NCBI GenBank assembly: GCA_034226945.1
Contig: CP120462.1
Span: 496,001-560,000, forward strand
Reading direction: 5' to 3'
From: Picochlorum sp. SENEW3
Taxonomy: Eukaryota
Length of the DNA: 64,000 nucleotides
In this document: piece after piece, positions 1,261 through 41,500 of the stretch
How positions within the stretch are numbered: the first letter of the stretch is position 1
Layout: each line of letters begins with the position of its first letter
Translations under genes and position numbers: made by a program
The notes under the pieces: generated by a model
The model's database searches: none
The model's input: the letters and a program-made list of their open reading frames with translations, nothing else
Told to the model about the DNA's origin: nothing

Positions 1261-2827
1261 ATGGAGACGTACGTGGCTTTGTTGCAATCCGTAAAGATGT
1301 GCTGTGGTATTTTTCAAAAATGTTCTGAATCAAATCCTTCAAGTTTTGACTTCTCTTGTGCCCCTCGGGTATCACAGTACACCTTGATATTTTCCAAAGA
1401 ATATAAAGTCTTGATGTGGTCGTGTTTTGCCATGCAGATCGGTCAATTTTGACGAATTCGTCAGAACTGACACGGGTGAGATTTCAAATCTTCAACTCGA
1501 TAAAGACAATGGAACAACGATACAGCGTAAAGAATCATCGTATGTGAACCACGATAGTCGATTTAAGATACAAAAGAGGGATTATGAGCGTCAGTTTGCT
1601 CAATTGTACTTTTCCAGACTGGTCAAGCTGAGGCCTCATGTTGTCAAGGCTGCCACTGCGGCTTGGCCCAATGTGCCATGTGTTCGCGTGCTGGATGTTC
1701 CAGAGGAGAAGGAAGTGTGTATCGTCGGTACCCTGTATAAAGAAATGTCTTTGAAGCCGAGTATTTTGGATGAATATACAAAGGATGTGGGTGCTCAGTT
1801 GGGTGGGAATAGGTTTACGCAGGCTGGAGATGTCTTGGTGCTGGAGGATGAAGGTGGGCGAGTGTCTCTGGTGGGGGATGCGCTTGATGTTGGTACGATG
1901 GTGACTGGAGTTATTGTAGCTGTTAAAGGGACTGTTTCTGAGGAAGGGGATTTCCGGGTGGTGGATGTGTGCTATGCGGGGCATGCCCCACAGTCACGTG
2001 CCATCTCTTCCTCTGCTGCTGATGGACAGGAGAAAAGTCCGGCGTATGTGGCTCTCATGAGCGGATTTTCGTTCGGTATGGATTCGGAAACAGATATGTT
2101 AAAGGTTGAAATGATGCTCGATTATTGCGCTGGGATATTAGGATCGGAGCCAGAGCAGAAACAGGCATCCAATATTGTCAGACTTGTGTTTGCAGGGGGC
2201 ATTCTCAAGGGCAGCTCGAGTTTGTCACAGCCAACGTCGTATGCTTCAGTGCGAGAACAAGCAACAGCGTTGGAGCCTATACAGGAAGCAGATGCTCTTC
2301 TAGCGAATCTCTGTGAAACCGTGGACGTCGATGTGATGCCAGGTGTGACAGACCCAGTGAATTACTCTCTTCCACAGCAGCCACTCCATCGGTGCCTCCT
2401 CCCGCGAGCATGTTCCGTATCATCGCTCGTACGATGCACAAATCCACACGCTTTTGAAATAGATGGCGTACAATTTCTAGGAACATCAGGGCAAAACGTT
2501 GACGATGTCATGAGGTATTCTACATATGAATCCCCCACGGATATTCTGCAAAACATGCTGTCATGGAGGCACATCATTCCTACTGCTCCGGATAGCCTCG
2601 CGACGTATCCGTATAGCGATGAGGATCCATTTATTCTCGAAGAAACGCCGCATGTGTTGTTTGCTGGAGGACAAACGGCGTATGGCACCACAAAGGTGCA
2701 AGGGCCTGACGATCAGGTAACCCGAGTTGTGAGTGTTCCAGAATTCTCTCGGCAGCCAATGATGGTGCTCGTGAACATACATACGCTCGATGTTCATCCT
2801 GTGTATTTTGATACATCATTGGAGTAA
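1261..2827 (+). CDS. POLD2: DNA polymerase delta small subunit (B subunit); model: exon 1261-1268, intron 1269-1437, exon 1438-2827
   Basis: Motifs YERQFAQLYFSRL, LVLEDEGGRV, MPGxxDP, LPQQPLH, GTSGQN and PTAPDSL are typical of POLD2. ATGGAGAC|GTACGT...CAG|ATCGGTC splices in frame (METSVNF). Confidence 0.95.
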
Positions 2828-3243
2828 CTATGTAAGCATGTAGCCAAGTTCGCGTGGCCAAATTGCCCATGCATGGGCAATCATGATGATTAATTTCTGG
2901 GTCCTGAGTCTCTTTGTCTGGCATTTGTAAACTGAGTAGGACACATGACAGTACTATGCCATATTGTAAAAGCATTATTACAGATGTATCAAAGTTAATG
3001 TCACAGGGACTAGCATGCCTGAAATGTGAAAAAATTCTGTACAAACAATGCTGTGTCTTCCTGCGTGCCATCAGATGCATAATCCCACCGAGAGAGCTGA
3101 ACAGGCCACCTTTTCTCTGCACTTGCGCCCCACAAGTAAAGATCACTCGACAGGGAGGCGAGGCAGGTTCGGCCTCTTGGGACAAAGAACGCCGATGCAA
3201 TCACATTTTCAAGGGAAGAATATCCAACAGTCAACAACCGATA

Positions 3244-3867
3244 TTACTTTGTATTCCCGTTGAAAACCACCTTATTGCGGCATTTTTGAACAGATGGTCC
3301 TCCAAACTGAAACGTCGCCTGGTGCCCATGCCTAACTCCATAGCAAAAGAACGAAATCTCCACACTCATGTTTTCGTAGGACGTCACCCTCTCTCCATCA
3401 CCAATGTTACCATTGTTGGCCTTGTATAATGTTCTGTCAACCTTGTGGGTCTTGCCTGGCTTTAGTGTGCACCACTGGAGCTGCTCAACATTATAAGAAG
3501 AAATCCCGCCACAATCTGTATACTTGAGCGCTGGTATAAATTTTTTTGTCACAACATCATTGAGCATGTTGTAAACATCAACTCCGATACTCGTAGCTTG
3601 GTCCCGAAGGACCGCAACTGATGTCACTCCCTCTGCCCCGCTCACAGACCAGTCCTCACCATACACCACACGTTTATAAAATGTTTCCGTCCATGTACTT
3701 GATGGGCAAGATCTGTTCTTGAATTGAACGATTCCCGTCGATTCCTCCTGTAGCTTGAAGGTCAACGTGTCGAATTTTGTGATCTGATTTAAGCAGTTTG
3801 GCTGTTGTGCTTTCACGACGGTGCATAAAATCAGCGAAATGCAGGCTAAAATCAATATGCCCTTCAT
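3244..3867 (-). CDS. Secreted protein of unknown function (207 aa), paralogue of 8793-9475
   Basis: Signal peptide MKGILILACISLILCTVVKA. Cys spacing and motifs are shared with the gene at 8793-9475. Confidence 0.75.
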   Translation of the reverse strand: MKGILILACISLILCTVVKAQQPNCLNQITKFDTLTFKLQEESTGIVQFKNRSCPSSTWTETFYKRVVYGEDWSVSGAEGVTSVAVLRDQATSIGVDVYNMLNDVVTKKFIPALKYTDCGGISSYNVEQLQWCTLKPGKTHKVDRTLYKANNGNIGDGERVTSYENMSVEISFFCYGVRHGHQATFQFGGPSVQKCRNKVVFNGNTK

Positions 3868-4620
3868 CGCAGTTTTTTGTGCACAGAAAGACAAGGGTTT
3901 GAAAGCTGTCTATGCCCGGCTCGACTTACTACTGCTAATGTCGGAGAGATATTGTCGATTCGATCTTCCGACACCAAATTTTCAAACTTTCTATAAATGT
4001 AGAGAAATACTGCCAAACCGAGATCAATTGATCCGTGCTTTGCGCAAATCGGGTCACGCTCTTGTCGACACGATGTGGATACGCCCCCAGGATTGATACT
4101 GTTATTTTCACGTATCCTCTAAAGTTTTCGTGAGTTCGGCATTTAAACTCACGAAGTTGATTCGAATATTATATTATTTGGCCGCGGTACAGTGTATACA
4201 TTTTATCGAAAAATGGCACGGAGGGCATCAGAGCAGAGGCTGACGGACAGGTCTGTTTTACCAGGAGGTCAGATTTGGCATGGACATATCTTGTTAATCA
4301 GCCACCAATTGTATTACGATGGATTTAAATACACTCAGGAATGAATAAAGAGCAAAATCAGGAAGAAGCGACAAGTTCGAAGAACAATCTAGACATGAAT
4401 GTACCGAAGAAGGAACGTTGACATCTACCTCGCAAAAGCAGCAACAGACCCACAAAATCCAACTGTGCCTGACATAGTACAACTGGATGAGAGCCAACGA
4501 CAGATTCCTAAAAGCAGCAAGTAATACGGTTGTTGCAAAACAAGAGATGGCTTGATAGCACAAATACATGACTGCAATATCGACACTCGCCTCAGCCATT
4601 GGCCAACATGTATCGTGACC

Positions 4621-5016
4621 TTAAACAAAGAGTGGAACATTCCTCCGACACTTGTCGTAAAATAAATAATAACCACCTCTGCATTCTGTACAGGTTAGGA
4701 ACGATTCGTGGCAAGATTTGCAGTTCTTGAGATCGCATGGCAGACATGATGTCGAATCGTATCGAACCAATCCCTCGCCAGCTTTGCACACATTGACTGG
4801 TCTACACTGCTCCTTGCTCGCAGAGAGAGCAAACCCTGGGTCGCATTCGTCACATTTGTACGTGACGATCCCAGGGAATCCATCCGGTGGTATTTCTCGA
4901 GGGCTTTTGCAGCAGGAAATCGGTGGCCCCGCGCTAGGACATATTGAATATTCTGCTGCTGCAGAAAGCTCCAACAGGGCCAGGCCGATCAGGCTGAGAA
5001 CCAGGGTGAATCGCAT
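4621..5016 (-). CDS. Small secreted Cys-rich (CxxC/furin-like repeat) protein, copy A
   Basis: ATG-initiated signal peptide MRFTLVLSLIGLALLELSAA, followed by CxxC repeats (CDECDPG, CLPC, CKSC, CTEC). The upstream GTG extension in the ORF track lies in a predicted 5'-UTR intron. Confidence 0.8.
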   Translation of the reverse strand: MRFTLVLSLIGLALLELSAAAEYSICPSAGPPISCCKSPREIPPDGFPGIVTYKCDECDPGFALSASKEQCRPVNVCKAGEGLVRYDSTSCLPCDLKNCKSCHESFLTCTECRGGYYLFYDKCRRNVPLFV

Positions 5017-5714
5017 CTCCTCTGAAACCAACAGAACGCAATCAGGAGTAAACAAGAGTAACCATATGCCGGGATGAGGCGCAACACGAAAATATGCGCA
5101 AACACGGTCCGACCACAGCGGAAGGAGGTGTGCCACCCATAAGCACGGCGCGTACCTTGAGGTTTGCTACAAAGATTGATCCTTTCTTCTCACAAGTTTT
5201 TCTTTTGGAAAATATTGAGTATTACGAGTGTAACTCATTCAATGAATGTTTCGCAATTTAAACAAGCTCGACCGGGGAGACTACCACGATCGATGGCTCA
5301 TCGCGATGCAACCCCATTGCCGGCCGGCCGCGGGAACCCATAGGCCCCACAACGGGGTTCTACTGCGGGGTACCGTGCACCGGTGCACCAGATTGGCCCA
5401 TTGGTGGACAAATATTTGCAAATGAGCCATCTCTACCACGATCGTGGTAGTCTCCCCGGTCGAGCTTGTTTAAATTGCGAAACATTCATTGAATGAGTTA
5501 CACTCGTAATACTCAATATTTTCCAAAAGAAAAACTTGTGAGAAGAAAGGATCAATCTTTGTAGCAAACCTCAAGGTACGCGCCGTGCTTATGGGTGGCA
5601 CACCTCCTTCCGCTGTGGTCGGACCGTGTTTGCGCATATTTTCGTGTTGCGCCTCATCCCGGCATATGGTTACTCTTGTTTACTCCTGATTGCGTTCTGT
5701 TGGTTTCAGAGGAG

Positions 5715-6119
5715 ATGCGATTCACCCTGGTTCTCAGCCTGATCGGCCTGGCCCTGTTGGAGCTTTCTGCAGCAGCAGAATATTCAATATGTCCTAGCGC
5801 GGGGCCACCGATTTCCTGCTGCAAAAGCCCTCGAGAAATACCACCGGATGGATTCCCTGGGATCGTCACGTACAAATGTGACGAATGCGACCCAGGGTTT
5901 GCTCTCTCTGCGAGCAAGGAGCAGTGTAGACCAGTCAATGTGTGCAAAGCTGGCGAGGGATTGGTTCGATACGATTCGACATCATGTCTGCCATGCGATG
6001 ACATTAACTGCAGATACTGCTTCGAATCGTTCATGACGTGTACAAAATGCAGGCGTCGCACAAGGTTTTACCCTGACGGCAGGTGTAGGTGGAGAGATCC
6101 ACAATGGGACGACTATTAA
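5715..6119 (+). CDS. Small secreted Cys-rich (CxxC/furin-like repeat) protein, copy B; predicted 5'-UTR intron 5576-5709
   Basis: Identical to copy A up to CLPCD, then a different final module. CAAG|GTACGC...TTTCAG|AGGAGATG marks a UTR intron. Confidence 0.8.
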   Translation: MRFTLVLSLIGLALLELSAAAEYSICPSAGPPISCCKSPREIPPDGFPGIVTYKCDECDPGFALSASKEQCRPVNVCKAGEGLVRYDSTSCLPCDDINCRYCFESFMTCTKCRRRTRFYPDGRCRWRDPQWDDY

Positions 6120-6570
6120 GTCATCTCTTGTTTTGCAACAACGGTATTACTTGCTGCTTTTAGGAATCTGTCGTTGGATCTCAGCCAGTTGTACTATGTC
6201 AGGCACAGTTATCTTTTGTGGGTCTATTGCTGCTTTTGCGAGGTAGATGTCAACGTTCCTTTGTCGGTACATTTATGTCTAGATTGTTCTTCGAACTTGT
6301 CGCTTTTTCCTGATTTTGCTCTTTATTCATTCCTGAGTGCATTTAAATCCATTTTGATACCATTCAGAAAGGCCTGATGAGCAAGTTATGTTGATGTCCG
6401 TGCCAAATCTGACCAAAACATCATCAATTTGACTTGTATGAACACACTGGGCCACCACCAGGAAGAAACATCATCAGCTACATAACCTCCAGGTACCCTG
6501 TATGCAATTGATATAGTTTCTTATCCCACTTCCTCCCCGTGAATTCTATCTTTCTAGCATTCAGAAGTAC

Positions 6571-7026
6571 GAAGATGTCCCAATCATCCTTCTCTGGGGA
6601 ATGGGTTCAACCTTCAACCAGAGGTGCAATGGTTGGCTTGCCTTTGATGACATATCATCTACCATCAAGACAAACAATATGTGGTACAACATTGATATGG
6701 GACCAGCTCATATAGTCATATTGAGCGATTATGTAATATAAAGTGACAATTCTATCGTGTACAAGTGGTTTGATGAAGACTTGTCCAATGTTGATAGAGG
6801 ACAAATGCCATGGATTATTGTTGGATTCCATGCCCCTAAGTATCACACACAGATCGACCATTACAGGGGGAATCTAAATGTACAAGAACCTTTTGAACAT
6901 CTTATGCTGAAGCACAATGTGGATGTTGTATTGAATGGCCATGTTCATGCATATGCACTCTCCATTAGTGTATGCTTTCGAACCAGATACATGTGGACTA
7001 ATTTACATGACTGTTTGGGCTTGTGA
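6571..7026 (+). pseudogene. Purple acid phosphatase-like pseudogene fragment
   Basis: NMWYNIDMGPAHIVILSDY, YKWFDEDLSNVDRGQMPWIIVGFHAPKY and VDVVLNGHVHAY. In-frame TAA at 6739-6741. Frameshift near 6955 before VYAFEPDTCGLIYMTV. Confidence 0.85.
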
Positions 7027-7395
7027 ACCCTTGAAGGACTGTACAAGCAATGTGTGGACTAGTACTAGAATATTATGGAAGTCGTCGACATGGAGACCTG
7101 CTGTTTACCAGCCAATTTACTGTGGTATTGGTGTTATCGATGAAAGGACATCATTCTGCTCTCCTCGAACCTTGATCGTCCTTGCAACAGTCACAAGATG
7201 GCCTTTGTCAATATTTTCTGCATCATCTTCATCCATAACCAGAATACATGGATCTAGATGATGAAGAAGAGCTTGTGCTCTTGTGATCTAGAGCACAAGC
7301 TTGCGGGCGAACCGGTTCGCCTTGTAGGCCAACCCCAATCCCCTATGGAATTGGTCCCCTGGGCCGCGGGAACCACATTGGCCATGGCCATGGCC

Positions 7396-7744
7396 TATTT
7401 GCAAATGAGCCATCTCTACCACGATCGTGGTAGTCTCCCCGGTCGAGCTTGTTTAAATTGCGAAACATTCATTGAATGAGTTACACTCGTAATACTCAAT
7501 ATTTTCCAAAAGAAAAACTTGTGAGAAGAAAGGATCAATCTTTGTAGCAAACCTCAAGGTACGCGCCGTGCTTATGGGTGGCACACCTCCTTCCGCTGTG
7601 GTCGGACCGTGTTTGCGCATGTTTTTGTGTTGCGCCTCATCCCGACATATGGTTACTCTTGTTTACTCCTGATTGCGTTCTGTTGGTTGCAGAGGAGATG
7701 CGATTCACCCTGGTTCTCAGCCTGATCGGCCTGGCCCTGTTGGA
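7396..7744 (+). repeat. Direct repeat of 5413-5761 (upstream region, UTR intron and signal peptide of the Cys-rich genes)
   Basis: 349-bp match at offset 1983. I count four substitutions, all inside the predicted intron. Confidence 0.95.
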
Positions 7745-8102
7745 ACTCTGTTTCTTCACAGCAACTGAAGCGCGATGCCCGAATAGCGGCAGAATCATTA
7801 GCTGCTGTGAGGCAATCGACGTCAAACTATATAAGAAAGGAACAAAAATAAATTACAATTGTGAACGTTGTGATCCAGGTTATAAAGTGAGCCCATCCAA
7901 GAACCAATGCATTCCTGATATTCCAACTGCTTGTCTGGAGGGATATGGACCTAACTTTCAAAAAAATGGCACCTGCACAAAATGCACCGATCCAAACTGC
8001 AAATCTTGCTCTTATGAATTCAACGATTGTGTGATATGCGCAAAAGGCTACCAGTACAACGTTGACAGAGGCAATTGCGATCCGATCGTTGAACAACAGT
8101 AA
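7698..8102 (+). CDS. Small secreted Cys-rich (CxxC/furin-like repeat) protein, copy C
   Basis: Same leader MRFTLVLSLIGLALLEL. The mature part is diverged but keeps the Cys scaffold (CP..ISCC, CERCDPG, SKNQC, CTKC, NCKSC, CVIC). Confidence 0.8.
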   Translation: MRFTLVLSLIGLALLELCFFTATEARCPNSGRIISCCEAIDVKLYKKGTKINYNCERCDPGYKVSPSKNQCIPDIPTACLEGYGPNFQKNGTCTKCTDPNCKSCSYEFNDCVICAKGYQYNVDRGNCDPIVEQQ

Positions 8103-8792
8103 CCATGCTCACCCCTCCTGGTTGATTACCAAACAAGTCTGCTGAACATGGGAATTCGTGTTGAATTAAACACTTCCGAGAGGGTCACAGACACACTTTA
8201 TAATTAAGCCAGCATGTGATCTGTTCACCCACAAGACTGGTCCAAATCTTCTGTTTTGTGGGAACAAGACCCATGTAGAAGAGTGGCAGCAAAATTTTTT
8301 GGTCTCTGTCAAGGTCATGCAGACGCGCAACCACAGTATAAATGTCTTTATAGCAATGTGTTTTTTTTTGTCGAATCGTTTCGATATACACTCAGAATGT
8401 CTCTCTGTAATAGCTAATCTTTGTCTATATACCCACAGGCTACTAGCAGCAGCAGTATACCAACAGACAAAGACTCCAACAACCATTTGGTTTGCTTTAA
8501 GCAAACCTATAATCTAGGGTAAACATGCCTGCGGTGTGGTGGCAGTAGTGGTATACAACTCATTTAACCCACTGAAATGTGCTTGTAGAAGAGTAACGTT
8601 ACTCTGGGTATAACCCCCTGGGCCCCCGGGGGCCCGTTCCGGAACGTGGACCGATCGGTATCCGATACCGCAATATGTATCACATGAGATGGCAAACATG
8701 AAACCCAAGGGTTTCAGTCGTGTCAAAGATAGATAAAATTTAAACCAATATTCACTGTTTCCACGTTGAAACAGACGCAAGACTGTTCAAGC

Positions 8793-9475
8793 ATGATGCA
8801 TCGACTGGTTGCACTGGTTCTGCTGGCCTCCTTGGTATCAGCACGAAGGGAGTGCGTAGACGGGGTTACCTATTTCGCGGAAGCAGGCAAAACAGATATC
8901 TATAGGTGGAGCAGCAAAGAGCCAACCACACTTAAGAAGAGAACGGTGGGTCGTCTCGATAGCGTTGTATCCAGGCAATGTTGTTTTTCTCTGTATGAGC
9001 TGTAACCCAAGAAAGGACAACCTTTGCATGACTGCAGTGCGACCCCAGCAAGTACTATGTGGAAGAGAAACGCGAACTCTCGAATCTATGGGATACGAGG
9101 CGCTATGAAGACTATCCCATTAACTCCTTTTCGGAGCGACAGCAGCTGTCCCAAGTCGTGGAAGTGGCATTTCTAAACAATGTCCTTCCCTACATCAATT
9201 CGGGAAAGAATGAGAGCATCCTCAAATGTGAAACAGGTGTTCATTCTCTTATTGTTTCTGATTATCAACTTTGCTACCTCCAACAGGGAAAAGAGGCCAA
9301 TGTGAATGGCAAAACCTACACCTCTACTATTGAAATTGATAGGGATGGGAGTGGCAAAGACAAGGTATTTGGAAAGTACAGCGTCGTGGTTTCATACTCC
9401 TGCAACGGTCAGGCTCGAGAGCGATCTGTGGGCTTTACCTTCCAAGGAAAGGCCACAATAGAATGTACTGCCTGA
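8793..9475 (+). CDS. Secreted protein of unknown function (196 aa); exons 8793-8945 and 9038-9475
   Basis: Signal peptide MMHRLVALVLLASLVSA. ACG|GTGGGT...TGCAG|TGC joins two listed ORFs in frame. Homologous to 3244-3867. Confidence 0.75.
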
Positions 9476-10272
9476 CACTGTCTAGTGTTGATGTTGGAGA
9501 TTGGGCTGCCCAACGGATTTGGAAGGTCTATCTTCCATCCGTGGGATAGTGTGATACATTCCAATACCGTGCGATTTGTGTCATATCTCAGATACCGTGG
9601 TGGCGATAATTACTGGATCAATTGTAATGCCTCTGGACACACATTGGTCCACCTTCAGACTAACTGTGAGGGCCCCAGATTTGGGTCCCAGAGCTACGTC
9701 ACATCATTCCATAGTATTTAAAAGATTATTAAAATGCATATGAAACCCACGTCTTTGGCTCCACAAGGCCAGAAGGCTCGATTTTGGCATGCATTCACGA
9801 CAGTCACCATACTGTAGTATGGCAGCGATACCAGCATACCATCTACATAGAATGTCCCCTTATATATATCAGCATCGATGCTGTCCTCTGTTGATGACAG
9901 GGTTGATTGATACAATTTTAAATGTATTTCCATTCGTGTGTGAGAATCCTTGAGCATGAACATTTCCAGATCATGGGCAGCTGCAGATCCAGTCCGGCGT
10001 GACTTTGGAGGTCGCGCTCGATTTCATGTTTTGAATTTTCAAACAATCGTCCCATACCTCTCCAGAAACAAACACAACAATTTCTGTTGCTAAAGTATCT
10101 CTTAAAAACTATAATAAAAGAGATATGACACGCTGTTGACCGTTGTTGCCTCCGTTCCTTGTGGTATTGTTGTTGACAATTTGGAACGCCCTCCAGTTGA
10201 CCTTGAGCAGGCTCTAGAGAGGGAGCATTGTTGTTGTTGAAGTTGTTGTAGCAAATACAAATCGTTGCAGAC

Positions 10273-11931
10273 ATGTTTTATAGTTCACAGTTGTTGTCCC
10301 GGAAGACTCCGCTCGGGATTTGTTGGATTGCGTCTCATAGCGAAAGTAAACGGTTAAAGCGCACGCAAGTATTTGAATTTAGTATTTCACAATCATGTGA
10401 TAGTATTATAAATCCAGAAGCGCCTCTTGCGCTTCGGTTGTCTGGGCAATTGTTGTTGGGCGTCGTGAGAATCTACCAACGCAAGTTGACCTTCTTGGAG
10501 GCTGACGCAAAGAATGCTATAGATGGGCTTCAGAGGAAGGAAGGTACTTCTCAAAATGTGGATCTCCCTGATGGTGGTACTGCGCCAGAGAATGCCATCA
10601 CGCTTCCTGGGTCTGACCCTACTGTGTTTAAAGGGACGAATGGAGACTTGTTTCCCTCATTTCATATATCGTCTACGCCGGGCCTAGGCACCGGCGGATC
10701 TGGATCTCTGGCTCGGTTGAGTGGTGGGACGGATGTAACAATGGCTGATGATATTTCGGATGTGTTTGGTAGCACAAGATGGACGGCGAGTGAAGATAGG
10801 TTTGAGTTGGATGGTTCTTTGGACAAGCAGTTTAGCACGGAATTGGAACGTCTTCGATCGGCAGTTGATGTTGACACTGCTCCTGGAGATACTGGATTGT
10901 TTTATGATGGTGGTGATGATTTTGGGCCAATGGATGATATCATGGAGGCTCCTGGAGCAGAGCTTTTTGAGGCACCTTCTGTGCTTGTTGATCCGAGCAA
11001 GACGCCAGGGTCTGTCGGACATTTCTCAGAGATGCTGAAAGCGTCTCCAAGCGGCGGTATGAGTCCAGGAATGAACGTACCGGACGATTTCGACATGGAT
11101 GATTATGGTGGTGGTGGTGGTGATGACTATTATGATGATGGTCCATTGCCTCCAAGCACCCCAGTGGCACCGAAACCTCGAAAGAAGAAGACATTCCATT
11201 TAGATCTTGATGCGGATGGAGATCCTTGTACATTTTTAGACGATAGTGAAACGAAGAAGTTGCTTCGCAACCGTGCTCCTTTGATGAAGACGAGGGGCAT
11301 TGTTGCTGATGATGCCGCCGCTGCTGAAGAATCATACACATTGGCATCCATCACGTACGTCGCTCCAGACATTGCAAAGATTATCAATCCAATCATTCAT
11401 CCGCCAAAGCCAGTGAGAGAACGGGCGGCGAAACGAGACAAGAATGAGACCGACAACGCACCTGCAGATGACACGAATCCATTTGAAATTGACCATGGAG
11501 ATGGTGGTGGAATGGATGACTACGGTGGTGACTATGGTGATGATGATTTTGGTGGTGGATACGACGATATGGATGATATGGATGTGATGCAAACTCCAGT
11601 GTCAGACGCAGACGTTGAAAAAGCCATCTTGACACATGATGGATTCACTGCTCGCACGCAGTCAGTGATGAAGCACATCCGTCACAGGTTGGAACCATCC
11701 CCCGGGGAGAAACGCCCTCATGAAGAGTCATCATCAACCAGAAAAATCTCCTTGGACTCTCTTGTCAGTGGAAAATCTCGACTTGAGGCGTGCAGATGGT
11801 TTTTTGAATCCCTGGTTCTGCGGAACAAGGGATTCTTGGACTTGGAGCAGTCCTCACCGTATGGGCCTATTCAAATCGTCCCTCTTGATAAGATGGACGC
11901 ACAGAAGCCCGAAGTAGAGCTACATGAATAG
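10273..11931 (+). CDS. RAD21: Cohesin kleisin subunit Rad21/Scc1
   Basis: N-terminal MFYSSQLLSRKTPLGICWIA and LALRLSGQLLLGVVRIY. C-terminal winged helix SRLEACRWFFESLVL...LEQSSPYGPI. Confidence 0.93.
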   Translation: MFYSSQLLSRKTPLGICWIASHSESKRLKRTQVFEFSISQSCDSIINPEAPLALRLSGQLLLGVVRIYQRKLTFLEADAKNAIDGLQRKEGTSQNVDLPDGGTAPENAITLPGSDPTVFKGTNGDLFPSFHISSTPGLGTGGSGSLARLSGGTDVTMADDISDVFGSTRWTASEDRFELDGSLDKQFSTELERLRSAVDVDTAPGDTGLFYDGGDDFGPMDDIMEAPGAELFEAPSVLVDPSKTPGSVGHFSEMLKASPSGGMSPGMNVPDDFDMDDYGGGGGDDYYDDGPLPPSTPVAPKPRKKKTFHLDLDADGDPCTFLDDSETKKLLRNRAPLMKTRGIVADDAAAAEESYTLASITYVAPDIAKIINPIIHPPKPVRERAAKRDKNETDNAPADDTNPFEIDHGDGGGMDDYGGDYGDDDFGGGYDDMDDMDVMQTPVSDADVEKAILTHDGFTARTQSVMKHIRHRLEPSPGEKRPHEESSSTRKISLDSLVSGKSRLEACRWFFESLVLRNKGFLDLEQSSPYGPIQIVPLDKMDAQKPEVELHE

Positions 11932-20452: not shown

Positions 20453-22474
20453 TTATGTTTGTGATGACAGTTCATCACGTATGGTCATGAGAAGCTTTCC
20501 TAGATGGTTGCTGCCGGTACCATCAATACCTCTGCCCCAGAAAAAGTCATGGGGTGACGATTCCACGAGAGCTGCATGTGGTGTTTTTAATGTTCCTAAA
20601 AGCGTGTCTCGAGGGCCTTTATGGCATGAGAATTTCCGTAGCAAGGCGGCATGCATGACAGCAAGCTTGCGTGCTTCCCAGTCTGGGTGCAGCAGTTCTG
20701 GTGTGCTGGCTTCTGCAGTTCGGCCTATTTTGGCAGCTTCATCTGGGCTTGGTGCTCTCATGATGTCTTCTATAATGTCTCTGGATGCTTTGTGATCGAC
20801 TCCGTGGAATTTCTGTGCCTGATAGTAGTGTTCAGATGATGGCCATAGTCTCCCATGAGGTATTGGTGCATCTGCGGTTGTTAATGCATGCCGTACTGCT
20901 TCCAGTGTTGGTTCATCCATTGTGACATCCGGCATATCTATTGGATGCGGACTGAAATTACTGAGACAGCCCAACTTGTCCCAGCATTTGTAAAACTCGA
21001 GTTGTTGTTGCTGCTGGACCTGTGATGGTGTTGTCTGAGGAGAGAGCCACAGTTGGTTTGTTGCACTCTTGGATGATTCAATAGGTTGATATCGCGCGGA
21101 TGATTGTGACTGAATGATTCCCAGTGAGTCTGCTAATGCTTTGGGGCCGCTTGAAATTGGTAAATAGCCGGAGATCATCACGTCGGGGCCAACTGTAGAC
21201 CATTGAGGATGCAAAATATCAATAGCCTGCGTCATCTCTACAAAGCCGAGTTCTCCCATTGGCGTTGGCGCTCCTTTACCGCCGATTATTTTAGGGGCGA
21301 TGAAGGCTATGACTTTATGAATGGTGTTGTCGGCCACTGCTGGAGCAGCCAAGACACCGCCGCATTCCCATAAACATGAAAGGAAGCCTCGCTGATAACA
21401 ATACTCTGATACAGCCTCTGGAGTCAAAAAGTCGAACTCGACAACTTCAACCCCTTTGCTCACTAACTTTCGTTGCATATCTTTTTTAGCGCCTTTTTGC
21501 GTGGCGACTATGGTGGGAGCAACCTGTGTATCCCACATGTCTGCTTCCATTGGAAGGTCCAGGCGCCTGGACATGACAATGCGGACAGGCTGATGACCAC
21601 CCTCCATTCTCGTCGTTAGCCGAGGATTATCTCTACGAACCGTCTGGCCACCAATGATGACAGCATCGCAGGATGCTCTTGTTCGAAAAACAATACCTCG
21701 AGAATCTTGACTGCTCACCCACGCACTATGTCCAGACGATGCTGCAATCTTCCCATCCAATGTCATGGCATACTTGATGATCCCCATGGGTTTTCCTAGT
21801 GCAGCTCTATGCAAAAGGGCTTCATTGCTAGAATATATGATATCAAGCCTATCAATGCTCTCCTGACTGAGACCAGACAATGACAATGTGTTTTGGAGAA
21901 TGTCTACGTGTATTCCGGCAGAGAGAAGAGCATCCACTGCTTTCCCCCTGGAATGTTCCAAGGGATGTAGCATTCCAACAACGCAACGCTTCACGCCAGA
22001 ATGAATGAGTGCTTGTATAGCAGCAGTATCACCGTGGCAGTCGCCAGTCTCCAAATTAAGGTAGGCTGTCCCACCTGCAGCAGCTCCCTGTGCCTCTTTC
22101 ACAGCAATAACTTCCGGAGCCTCTGCACCTTGGGCCCACAGAGATCCCTGCCCCACGATCGATCCTTGTGTATCTGTTAGTATACATCCAGCGTTCGGAT
22201 GGGGTTGTGTCTTGGTCACAGAGTCGAGGGACAGCTCTGCTGTTTGGACGAGAACGTCGACATCTCTCTCAGTGAGGTGAGATCTGACCATATGGGTCAT
22301 TACATCACGACATGACTGTCTCTTTTGCTGCATATAGTCAAATGATCGTTGATTATCCTACCCAGGCCTGGGCATTCATCGGAGAAAAGAACGTACCCGT
22401 CGGTTACGTGTACAAGAACGTATGGAGCAGTTCAAATGAGGCTCCACAGGTGTTTTATACGTTACAGATGCCAT
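20453..22474 (-). CDS. PYRR: Riboflavin biosynthesis protein PYRR (degenerate deaminase, reductase and NADAR domains); exons 22474-22397 and 22327-20453
   Basis: PHPNAGC, KYAMTLDGKIA, DNPRLT and WECGG, then NADAR motifs LSNFS, SEHYYQAQKF and FWGRG..GSNHLG. CGG|GTACGT...GCAG|CAA adds a transit-like exon in frame. Confidence 0.9.
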
Positions 22475-34923: not shown

Positions 34924-36052
34924 TTACTCAAGTGGGGTGAATGTGGCAACTCCTTGTGTAACAGATCCCTCCTCTGGAACATCAGATGGAATCTCTCTGG
35001 CATCCAAGGTCTCAACAATAGCTTCAGGGGCTGGAGCATCGACAGCTGGAGCTGGAGCATCGACTGTTGGAGCTGGTGCATCCACTGCTGGAGCTGGTGC
35101 GTCAACTGTTGGTGCTGGTGCATCCACTGTTGGAGCTGGTGCATCCACTTCTGGAGCTGGGGCATCGACTGTTGGAACTGGTGCATCGACTGTTGGAGCT
35201 GGGGCATCGACTGTTGGAACTGGTGCATCGACTGTTGGAACTGGTGCATCGACTGCTGCAGCCTGTACATCAACTGCTGGGGCTGGTACATCCACCACAT
35301 CATCAGCAACAAAAACAGGCTCTGTGACAACTGGCAGCTCTGCAGCAACAGCTTGCGCCTCTGCATTCTGAACTGCTCCTGCCTTTGCAGGAGCAGTGGC
35401 TGTGAAAGCCACTGGGTCACTGCAGACCATGCTTTTTGGAAGAAGTGTTGCAATGTAGCAGCTGTAAGCTCCAGCGGCCACATCTCCAACTTCAAAGGGA
35501 ATAATCTCCTTTGCATCTGTGTACTCGCCAGTCACAATCTCAGAAGAGGGCTCCACAAAGCAAGATTTTCCATTTTCCACACAGAATGCAGCGTATTCCA
35601 GTTTTCCATTGTATGACACGGTCATTGGAGCCTCAAATGTTCCCGTCCATGTCGCGCCAGTGGCATCGGCCTCCACATTGTGTGGCACATATAGAGAGAG
35701 TCCTGCACAGTAGTACGTATCAAGAGTTAGTCACGATGATCTTTACTCGCATTGTAAACATTTTTGCTCGTTTTCATGTTTGCTTCTAGATGCCGAGTCT
35801 TTCACTGGCCGTGTGTACGGTCGTTTCGAAAGACGACCATGACTCCAGTCAAACAATCAGATAGAGTCTCAATCACACGTTTCCAGCAGAGATTCCCGCA
35901 CACTCCTCAACTCGTGTGCAACACCAAACTCCAAAAAATCAAGAAAGCATCAGAGACCTCGTCTATCCGAAGCCTGGTCACCCACCTGCAGCAGCATTCG
36001 CCGAAGCAAACATTCCAGCCCCAAGGGCTGCAACCATTCCAATCTTAATCAT
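34924..36052 (-). CDS. Secreted protein with a small Cys-containing domain and a Pro/Ala/Thr-rich repeat stalk; exons 36052-35986 and 35702-34924
   Basis: Signal-peptide exon MIKIGMVAALGAGMFASANA splices in frame (GCAG|GTGGGT...TGCAG|GA) to ORF 34924-35688. Confidence 0.7.
35024..35295 (-). repeat. Coding 21-bp tandem repeat (about 12-13 units, PAPTVDA-like)
   Basis: Units such as TGGTGCATCGACTGTTGGAAC are visible on the plus strand. Confidence 0.9.
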
Positions 36053-38561: not shown

Positions 38562-41500
38562 CTAAATAGTGAGGAATGATCCGCAGATGGGATCGTCTCT
38601 GTAAATTCCGAATTGCTGTAAACAGATTTCCCACATGCCACTAGGAAGCATGGCAGCTCCTGCAAGGGCTCCAGTGAAACCAGCATTGTTTTCTATTCCC
38701 ACCATGGATGCGTCATTTGTTCGTTCGTCAATATAATAATCGCTTTTGCCAGGACCATGGACCAACGCGCCAGTCAGTTGATATGTGTCTGGGTCGGGAG
38801 ATAGATAGCTTGTTACCCTGTTGCAGACACCTGGGCGCGCTGGGCACGCAGCAGCTCTGTCTTGAGTTCGTTTGGGTGGATTATGTCCTTGTCCTATCAC
38901 CATACTTCGACCTGCATCTCCCATCATGTAGCGAACTTGTGAGAGTCCCCAGCACTTGTATGCTTGTGATTTGGCAGAGTCTTTGTGCTCAATGAGGTCT
39001 GCATACATGAAAGCAGACATGGCAATGTTTGCAGTTGACCCCAAGGGTGCACTGAATGCATTATATGCTCGACCTCGTCGTGTATAGTTTGCTGCATTAT
39101 TTGCACACATCCAGTTGCGGAGGAAGTCTTCGCTGTGCTTGACAAAGGTTGAGTTGCCAGTTTCTTGAGCCATCAAGACATTCAGAGGCCAGAAGACGTT
39201 GTCCCAATCGAATGCGTACTTCCAAGAAGATGCTGATGATTCTTCTTCTAAATACGATATGTAATGAGTATACATATCGTCCAGATATCCCTGCTCTTTT
39301 GTTGCTTTGTATAGCCAGCCTGCTGCCCAGGCAAGGTCATCATACATGCTAGACGAGTTGTACAGCTCGGACAGGTTATGGTCGCCCCTATCGAATCTAA
39401 ACTTGGCACCAACCGAGTCTTCATAAACTTCTTTGGCTTTGTTGAGAAGTTTTTCTGTGTACTCGGGAGTCTCATATCCAGATTCTCTGAATAAGGTGGA
39501 GGCAGCGGCAAGTCCAGCTGACACAGATCCACCCAAGTCAGCACCATAGCCTCCAACGCTTGAGTAGAGGTCTACAGCAAACGCTTCTCTTGTTCTGGCA
39601 TCTTCTGGGCGATACCAGAGCTCTGGTTCGCGTTCTACGTCACCAACCCTTGTGACTAACAGTGATTTATCTTCCAAAGGAATTCTACGATGAACCTTCA
39701 TGAGATAATCTGCTCCAGTTTTGACAGAGTCCATCAAATAGTCTGTTTGGCCAGATATTTCGAATGCATTATGGAATCCCATGAATCCCCAAGCAAGCAC
39801 ACTAGTTGTAAAGGCAATTGGACTGGTGGCTTTGATGTTACCTCCTTTCATACCTGAGACCCAACCCCCTGAAAGGTCCCATGGTGTGGATGTTGCAAGC
39901 TTGAGTTCTATCTCAGACATTGCGAATGGATCTGATAGTCCTGCAAATGGATCAGAGGAGCCACCAAACGGATCTGAGGAGCCACCAAACGGATCTGAGG
40001 AGCCAAATGGATCAGAGGAGCCAAACGGATCAGAGGAGCCAAACGGATCTGACGAACCACCAAACGGATCTGACGAGCCAAATGGATCAGAGGAGCCAAA
40101 TGGATCTGACATGCCACCAAACGGATCAGAGGAGCCAAATGGATCTGACGAGCCACCAAATGGATCTGACGAACCACCAAATGGATCTGAGGAGTCAAAT
40201 GGATCTGACGAGCCACCAAATGGATCAGATGCTCCCAAAGGAGCAAGGTTGCTGAATGGATCAAAGGAAACTGATGAGCTAGATGAATCAGATGAACTGA
40301 ATGGATCAGCAAAAATATCCTGCTCTTGAGAAGCGGTGTCGACTGCAGAGGCAAAAGCATCAGATGCATCACCAGATTGCAACAATTTCCTTCCAAAAGG
40401 CTGACTATATCGTGAACCAAAAGGCTGTACAGCTATGTTGTCAAGGAGAAGCGTATCATTTATGTTCTCTGCCAGATAAACAGCCGATTGTGTTTCACCA
40501 GCAAATGAACCTGTAAACAAAACTGACCAGATTAAACATGCACAGATACACCATGATCTGAAACTGCATTCACGTACTTTGTCTCCAAGAGACCCTGAAG
40601 TCACCAGGCAATTGGCCAACCCGTTGTGTATCAAAAAAGTATAAGCTGTTGCTCAGAGCTTCACTGTAGTCATATGTCCTAGGATACAGGAGCCACACTA
40701 GAACAACACCAAATATGCTCAAAAATGTTGAGATGAACATCATCACACGGCACACCAAGGTGAAGAACAAAGGTGACCTGTAAATAGCGTACTGGATCAA
40801 AAGATAGAGCGGGACCAGGTTGTACGCAATGAAGATGATTGAAATTGCCAAGGGTGTGTCGGTCACCTCTCCTCTAACGTAGGTGATCAAACCAAAAATC
40901 AAAGTGACGATTGAGAAAATGAACCAAATACTTGCCATCCAGAGATCGCGTATTGGTAGATTGTTGAGCTTCTGCAGACCTTTTGCAGTCACCTTGAACA
41001 CAATAGTGCCAGCCAACCACCTTCCTACTGTTGCTCGATACATAGCTTTCAGGAATGCCCACCACAGAATGCTGTTTGCTACAGATGCAAACCACATCGA
41101 CTGCAACAAGAGGATGAATGTTTATATAGATGATTTGTGGAAGCATGAAATACATAAATCACATACCTTTAGATGTCTCAGTGATCTTGTGTAATACATC
41201 ACCATTAACGTTGCTGGGTAGTAAACAGTGACTGCTATGGCACACCATATGTTGATGACAATGGGGAAAACACCAAACCAAACGGTAACCATAGGTACCA
41301 ACATGAGCAAGGGTGTACCTATAAAGGCTGAGAAGTATGACAAGGCCACAGAGCCATAAAGCCAGCGCATGAGGAGGGATAAGCCTTGGGCGCCTTTCCC
41401 AAATGTTGGATTTCTCACCCTGTTGTAGAATAACTGAAAATGTCCCTTGGCCCATCTCGATCTCTGTTGAAAGCAATTTCTCACCTCATCAGGAGCTTCA

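Follow-up and report, generated by a model that had tools for sequence, protein, structure and literature searches.

Chains of short perfect palindromes between the genes for POLD2 and RAD21 in Picochlorum sp. SENEW3 are, in our judgement, likely to be footprints left one on top of another by the excision of a CACTA (EnSpm) DNA transposon. The chains lie in an island at positions 2851-8720 of the window, by which we mean the whole stretch of 64,000 nucleotides analysed here (G000:C11:496001-560000, G000 being the genome of 13.85 Mb in 14 contigs with 46% G+C). Within the island are three copies of a cassette of about 1 kb, consisting of an upstream region and a cysteine-rich open reading frame (ORF) of 131-134 amino acids (aa) with a hydrophobic N terminus. 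The best reading of the palindromes upstream of the island genes is that they are mostly such scars and form a record of past jumps. The evidence comes from palindrome pairs that carry a fixed 3-base duplication and from a multi-copy transposon of matching duplication length. The chemistry is known; what stands out is unusually long, stacked scars and not a new diversification system.

Palindromes in the island and across the genome

The original prediction, made from the letters of the island, had listed eight palindromes there, and each was found in its place. Perfect palindromes of at least 12, 14 and 16 bp number 11, 8 and 7 in the island, against means of 1.6, 0.4 and 0.1 in 300 order-2 Markov simulations of 2851-8720. 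These counts were reached in none of the 300 simulations, the maximum at 16 bp or more being one. Six of the seven longest are distinct, as 5433 and 7416 are the same 18-mer in a duplicated cassette, a near-identical version of which occurs in two further cassette copies; in the other 55 kb of the window there is one palindrome of this length (21557-21572). Except for the one at 2862, each listed palindrome precedes a start codon by 120-420 bp. Hairpins with a stem of at least 8 and a loop of at most 1 number 8 in the island (1363 per Mb) and 38 in a systematic sample (112 per Mb), a density about 12 times background. The observation of the original prediction is confirmed.

The systematic sample comprised 34 evenly spread 10-kb nuclear stretches (340 kb), one stretch of the 37-kb contig C13, probably organellar, being left out. 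It contained 22 loop-less palindromes with a stem of at least 8 vs 5.7 expected, which rejects the view that the palindromes are a peculiarity of the island. Loops of 2-8 gave 5-10 vs 4.5-7.1. Chains of at least four hairpins, some of them simple repeats, numbered 12 vs 0.85 expected, and pure chains of 7-10 hairpins were found on contigs C6, C8, C2 and C11. Density in long open frames was 73 per Mb across the first 19 stretches, and 301 per Mb in the DNA outside them.

The island chains are real DNA and not an assembly artefact, because contigs of run X1, which does not belong to the best-matching study, reproduce them; one such contig is identical to the island over 8317-8726. The probability that fold-back chimeras of assembly or library, or chance, produced the chains is close to negligible. 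The large inverted duplication in the island would fit such an artefact, but its arms are 97.7% alike and have differing coding ends, run X5 spans 8362-8612 with one change and one gap, and the null simulations fall far short of the observed counts.

A fixed 3-base duplication in the scars

The scars share one design: a 3-base word, loop-less inverted copies of the left and then the right flank, and the same word again. In a paralogue-free scan of 688 kb, adjacent palindrome pairs with an exact 3-base duplication numbered 31 vs 0.5 expected, and pairs with a 2-base duplication 8 vs 1.8. Across all fetched DNA, 47 of 245 distinct pairs (19.2%) belonged to the 3-base class vs 1.2% of 247 null pairs; in the systematic sample alone, 3-base pairs numbered 13 under loose thresholds (2.0 expected) and 6 under strict ones (0.3 expected). 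The one-base-offset classes reached 4-5% vs 1-2% in the null across all fetched DNA and had no base bias, and we rejected the idea that the element's terminal C or G is retained in scars. Three clean scars lie in the island (Table 1) vs 0.04 expected at the null rate.

A collapsed, unscarred allele was found for 11 of 46 3-base scars (for one of them only in its own periodic locus), compared with 4 of 101 pairs without duplication and 0 of 20 with a 2-base duplication; none of the 11 lies in the island. Alignment with paralogues shows the scars to be insertions relative to them, at the level of sequence. Together with the 3-base design, the collapsed alleles support the part of the original prediction that had a hairpin-opening mechanism repeatedly breaking and rejoining these spots. 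Arms measure 4-13 bases (median 6, the lower bound being set by the filter) and inserts 11-21 bases. No bias shows in the duplicated words, of which the 46 scars have 29 kinds, and the flank copies overlap by 1-4 bases in 23 of the 46. Scars of this design also occur inside transposon copies. One repeated site is unscarred in seven loci, has a single scar in L103 and bears further additions on top in L037, a step series that shows, as far as sequence goes, accretion by successive events at one site. A survey of paralogue indels yielded 38 well-flanked extra segments, only three of which had an adjacent stem of at least 5 (null 6.7%), and the proposition that most paralogue indels are palindromic scars was rejected; all three were of the 3-base design, with flank copies overlapping by 2 bases.

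A CACTA-type transposon with a predicted RAG1-like transposase

The original prediction had noted that no transposase is visible in the window, which is correct: the enzyme in question lies outside, in a multi-copy transposon. Seven full-length elements of 6072-6091 bp (~6.07 kb) are present in the genome. All seven have 18-bp terminal repeats starting CACTT, and six of the seven are flanked by a 3-bp target duplication (one has none), with unbiased target words. CACTA/EnSpm elements are defined by short terminal inverted repeats starting CACT(A/G) and a 3-bp target-site duplication; members of the group also have subterminal repeats and a further gene, for a TnpA-like DNA-binding protein. The transposase is encoded by a 953-aa ORF family; eight loci match it at 97-100% identity and three loci in this band have intact frames of 949-953 aa, which suggests, on sequence grounds, recent activity. 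Among 37 homologues tested out of 150 listed, eight matched PF02992 (Tnp2), two of them over the cut-off, and a homologue 96% identical to the transposase is labelled 'Picre1'. A structure model of residues 101-656 (pLDDT 87.5, pTM 0.89) had its best matches in ProtoRAG and RAG1 (E 4e-6 to 1e-3), followed by Transib (E 0.01); all listed matches with E<0.001 were RAG1 or ProtoRAG. We class the 6.07-kb element as a CACTA-related transposon with a predicted RAG1-like transposase fold. A palindrome chain surrounds the copy on contig C9, and the flanks of the seven elements (1400 bp) contain 10 hairpins vs 3.4 expected.

Most CACTA ends, together with a repeated element that carries an 18-bp palindrome, cluster at G000:C4 0.95-1.11 Mb and G000:C6 0.59-0.76 Mb, which suggests local hopping and nesting.

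How excision could build the chains

Insertion of the element duplicates 3 bases, as seen for the element copies. On excision the transposase would cut exactly at the element ends and seal each flank as a hairpin; that the seal falls exactly at the boundary is suggested by the zero loop and zero offset of the scars and by the RAG1-like fold. RAG1 and Transib likewise cut at the element ends and seal the flank as a hairpin. A host nuclease would then open the hairpins about 4-13 bases from the tip, and the two palindromic tails would be joined, often via short microhomology. Elements, or unseen non-autonomous partners, may return to the same upstream regions, scars landing on scars could build hypervariable chains of 100-170 bp, and later deletions and one-sided events would leave single palindromes. 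The palindromes at 7306 and 5433 and the chain at 8590-8670, none of which can be decoded, may also be excision scars, and such breaks may have set off the duplications of the cassette, both inverted and direct. The genome encodes two Ku proteins, two SNM1/Artemis-domain proteins and one protein of polymerase-theta type. According to the accessible part of PMC5499845, which names RAG, Transib, hAT and Mutator only, transposases of these kinds generate flank hairpins that are opened by host enzymes.

Several observations weigh against this account. Pairs without a duplication are also in excess (48 vs 14.2 in the 688-kb scan), as are 2-base duplications (20 vs 7.7) and one-base-loop palindromes (16 vs 8.5 expected in the systematic sample); because of these excesses, processes other than hairpin excision contribute to the palindromes. 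Only three clean scars decode in the island. Peeling, carried through 16 steps over 14 chains and run without a null, stripped all hairpins from one chain and took nothing from 8575-8730, 2840-2910 or 4010-4060. Co-location of palindromes with homology ends showed only weakly in an automatic test of BLAST alignment ends (19 of 162 vs 7.6%), most of these ends being internal divergence breaks. No CACTA element end or fragment was found in the window or in the related island L025, nor any site both element-occupied and excised. The transposase itself has no Pfam match, its TM-scores to RAG1 are only 0.35-0.47, and the enrichment at element flanks comes mostly from one site (7 of 10 hairpins at the C9 copy). 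For CACTA elements, the flank-hairpin chemistry is something we infer from general background.

Snap-back synthesis by polymerase theta (SD-MMEJ) at ordinary double-strand breaks, in which 3' ends fold back, copy themselves and are then joined by microhomology, was our earlier working reading in an iterative form and was demoted when the fixed 3-base duplication was found. The genome does encode a helicase-polymerase-A protein, presumably of the polymerase-theta subtype given its architecture, and no family-X polymerase (PF14792) was matched in the genome, although this does not prove absence. Of the bases in hand-picked chains, 45% can be read as fold-back copies, compared with 16% in the null, and snap-back could account for the undecoded and one-sided parts of chains. 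The accessible text of PMC2943611 reports that snap-back can run through multiple rounds and can prime between adjacent nucleotides. However, that process does not explain a duplication fixed at 3 bases (19% vs 1.2%), and the optimum snap-back loop is 6 nucleotides (nt) in the portions available of PMC9303309 and PMC11292364, whereas here the excess lies mainly at loop 0 (22 vs 5.7) and loop 6 stays close to the expected number (7 vs 4.5). A polymerase-theta-type origin, one of the sources the original prediction had offered, is accordingly unlikely.

The other offered source, hAT-type excision, belongs with the broader possibility that a different element or nuclease whose cuts are staggered by 3 bases (PIF/Harbinger, hAT or an unseen family) left scars by the same hairpin chemistry. 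A hAT transposase is present in two copies, there is a mild excess of one-base loops, and the window lacks a CACTA end. However, the hAT design (8 duplicated bases and a palindrome with a complemented base at its centre) turned up once in 657 kb and is not enriched, so that hAT footprints were rejected; no clear terminal repeats could be resolved at the hAT element ends. PIF/Harbinger elements target TAA/TTA, and these words make up 1 and 0 of the 46 duplicated words, respectively. With a young CACTA family of exactly the right duplication length at hand, we regard this broader possibility as distinctly improbable.

The original prediction had also raised an undescribed diversification system, which could be pictured as a dedicated V(D)J-like machinery for secreted cysteine-rich genes, for example a domesticated RAG1-like enzyme. 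The roughly twelvefold density of the island, the placing of chains before multi-copy genes, both in this island and in another gene family, and the RAG1-like predicted fold would all suit it. Yet the scars occur genome-wide, inside transposon copies and upstream of genes, the enzyme resides in mobile elements with intact ends, the coding switch points of the secreted-protein paralogues (5761/7744, 6052/6113) have no palindromes, and the aligned upstream regions reveal no signal common to the chains. We consider a locus-specific system very unlikely indeed.

A further step beyond stacked excision footprints, speculative and rather unlikely in our estimate, would have a RAG1-like CACTA transposase keep coming back and make the chains self-renewing hypermutable upstream switches of multi-copy secreted genes, each scar raising targeting or fragility and seeding cassette inversions and duplications. 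If true, this would amount to transposon-driven regulatory and copy-number diversification of algal cell-surface genes, selected by viruses or grazers.

Should the CACTA origin hold, the scar design would be genomic evidence that a CACTA transposase, like its structural relative RAG1, makes flank hairpins precisely at the element boundary. Clean scars exceed expectation by about 11 per 340 kb, which scales to a few hundred in the whole genome, compared with seven full-length elements. The scars would thus be a countable record of past jumps, of target preference and of the distance from the tip at which hairpins are opened in this alga, and in an industrial genus they flag a mutator that rewrites upstream regions.

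Variation between strains and paralogues

Four of 20 listed sequencing runs (X1, X5, X6 and X8) were compared with the island, over positions 5770-11200 only. The junctions differ between them and are not invariant: run X8 replaces 8608-8644 by 97 other letters and skips 7346-7415, and loose contig ends in X1, X5 and X6 lead into other palindromic chains before the cassette. An X1 contig differs over 6765-7425 by one change and six gap letters. The label 'accessory' is not supported: the four runs cover 27-30 of the 30 bins of 5770-11200, a coverage to which paralogues elsewhere may contribute. Two further cassette copies (D and E), in inverted orientation, are located at G000:C11:565389-568478 (L025), 5 kb past the window end, in an island with four hairpin chains, one of them of 10 hairpins. 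Copies B and C of the POLD2-RAD21 island agree in 64 of 117 columns (13 gaps) across the 100 bp upstream and in 336 of the next 340 bp; copies D and E agree upstream in 56 of 122 columns and within the cassette in 338 of 341. The claim that palindromes sit at segment junctions stands in part: chains separate copies A and B and precede copy C, but the 18-mer of 5433/7416 lies inside the cassette, and the coding switch points named above and a further homology boundary at 6414 lack palindromes.

Outside the chains, 309 bp of the window (9552-9860) are missing in runs X6 and X8, which have two letters instead, and at 10040, upstream of RAD21, X8 has a 15-base insertion that is mostly a copy of adjacent bases. 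A relative's contig (L061; POLD2 91% identical) has, within 3.6 kb, a palindrome of 16 bp and a cluster of three hairpins (485-645); its POLD2 locus ends 57 bp past the stop and is uninformative on the empty site. In a second multi-copy gene family on contigs C9, C2 and C8 (L068-L073, L083-L085), paralogues have differing chains at the same upstream position.

Relation to known systems

Hairpin footprints as such are textbook knowledge, and plant CACTA footprints are short. The element resembles CACTA/EnSpm transposons such as En/Spm and Tam1 in its CACT-starting repeats, 3-bp duplication and Tnp2-related transposase; it differs in having T as the fifth terminal base and a transposase that alone falls below Pfam detection. 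RAG and Transib combine a loop-less geometry with a 5-bp duplication, and the usual P additions of V(D)J joining are shorter than 6. Our scars share with RAG1, ProtoRAG, Transib and V(D)J recombination a flank hairpin opened by host enzymes, as far as the accessible text of PMC5499845 describes it, and the transposase model is closest to RAG1; unlike in V(D)J recombination, there are no signal sequences and no joining of coding segments, the duplication is 3 bp and the median arm is 6.

Footprints of Ac/Ds, a hAT element, in plants and yeasts are similar in that palindromic insertions remain at the empty donor site and are joined by microhomology; the available part of PMC5873905 describes P insertions from flank hairpins with arms of up to 20 nt in budding yeast. 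In that account the centre of a hAT palindrome is the complement of the element-adjacent base (a one-base loop), and the palindromes accompany 8-bp duplications, whereas the scars described here have zero loop, a 3-bp duplication and long arms, usually on both flanks, and are stacked. Snap-back insertions by polymerase theta resemble them in inverted flank copies, microhomology joining and repeated rounds but differ in preferring a loop of about 6 nt and in lacking a set length of duplication, as described in the accessible portions of PMC2943611, PMC9303309 and PMC11292364.

EnSpm-3_cRei is active in Chlamydomonas lines according to the text available of bioRxiv 10.1101/2022.05.23.493040, whose main text, so far as accessible, does not contain 'footprint', 'hairpin' or 'palindrom'. 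The open-licence literature, in the parts accessible, yielded no description of long two-sided stacked CACTA footprints, older subscription work on En/Spm and Tam1 lying beyond reach, nor of such palindromes in Picochlorum. The accessible text of the Picochlorum genome paper (PMC11092101) has no CACTA, EnSpm or palindrome terms, and that of PMC12301381, PMC12636532 and PMC3878927 held nothing relevant.

Features of the island and its surroundings

Comparisons with Pfam and Atlas assigned no family to the secreted proteins of the cassettes. The coordinates of the island features and of its boundary genes are collected in Table 1.

Table 1 Features between POLD2 and RAD21 (window positions).
Feature	Position	Strand	Remarks
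POLD2 (DNA polymerase delta small subunit), 360-aa open frame, left boundary	1745..2827	+	Pfam PF04042 E 1.8e-42, PF18018 E 9.2e-18
20-bp palindrome and 13-bp one-base-loop palindrome	2862..2891		scar with 3-base duplication ATG and one extra right-side base; variant of the clean design, hence weaker
207-aa ORF, hydrophobic N terminus	3244..3867	-	probable signal peptide, by eye; no Pfam match; Atlas leads only, best 0.83
Palindrome pair, 12 + 10 bp	4022..4048		155 bp ahead of the 207-aa ORF; a one-base offset is needed to fit a 3-base duplication
62-bp terminal fragment of a dispersed ~1.85-kb element	4195..4256	+	element has a tyrosine-recombinase-like ORF
Cassette copy A: upstream region and Cys-rich secreted ORF 4621-5016 (131 aa)	4260..5296	-	left arm of inverted duplication with B; weak furin-like/VSP Pfam matches, below cut-off
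Palindrome chain between divergent copies A and B	5297..5432		two clean scars, 5319-5333 and 5369-5388
Cassette copy B, ORF 5715-6119 (134 aa)	5413..6414	+	contains 18-bp palindrome 5433-5450; 97.7% to copy A over 618 bp
Decayed metallophosphoesterase fragments, which we take to be purple-acid-phosphatase-like	6485..7246	+	83-88% like G000:C2 gene at 1042-1047 kb; PF00149 E 6.7e-4, below cut-off
Palindrome chain upstream of copy C	7270..7395		clean scar 7379-7395; partly within the stretch skipped in run X8
Cassette copy C, ORF 7698-8102 (134 aa)	7396..8446	+	97.9% to the copy at G000:C11:565389-566432
Chain of 5-6 hairpins upstream of ORF at 8793	8590..8718		no clean two-sided scar decodable
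70-aa ORF, hydrophobic N terminus	8793..9005	+	no Pfam match; probably first exon of a secreted-protein gene
RAD21/Rec8 kleisin, right boundary	10273..11931	+	Pfam PF04825 E 1.1e-31, PF04824 E 1.5e-11

The ~1.85-kb element (L033-L040, e.g., L033:1640-3490) has what we take to be a tyrosine-recombinase catalytic motif, with no Pfam match. It was rejected as a source of the chains: the island has the 62-bp fragment only, and the right ends of the element are without palindromes. Its left end shows variable AT-rich palindromic extensions, which fall outside the 3-base design. One copy lies beside primase-polymerase/helicase-like frames, presumably of Polinton-like-virus type (L035, G000:C2:1157501-1167500).

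Tandem repeat arrays with periods of ~21 and 18-19 bases occupy 35022-35295 and 39925-40262 of the window. On contig C4 (L081/L082), two 99% identical 5.3-kb segments each combine a hAT transposase with a LINE-like reverse transcriptase frame, and frames at G000:C6:608001-618000 (L038) are presumably KDZ/Zisupton transposase-like and Helitron-like.

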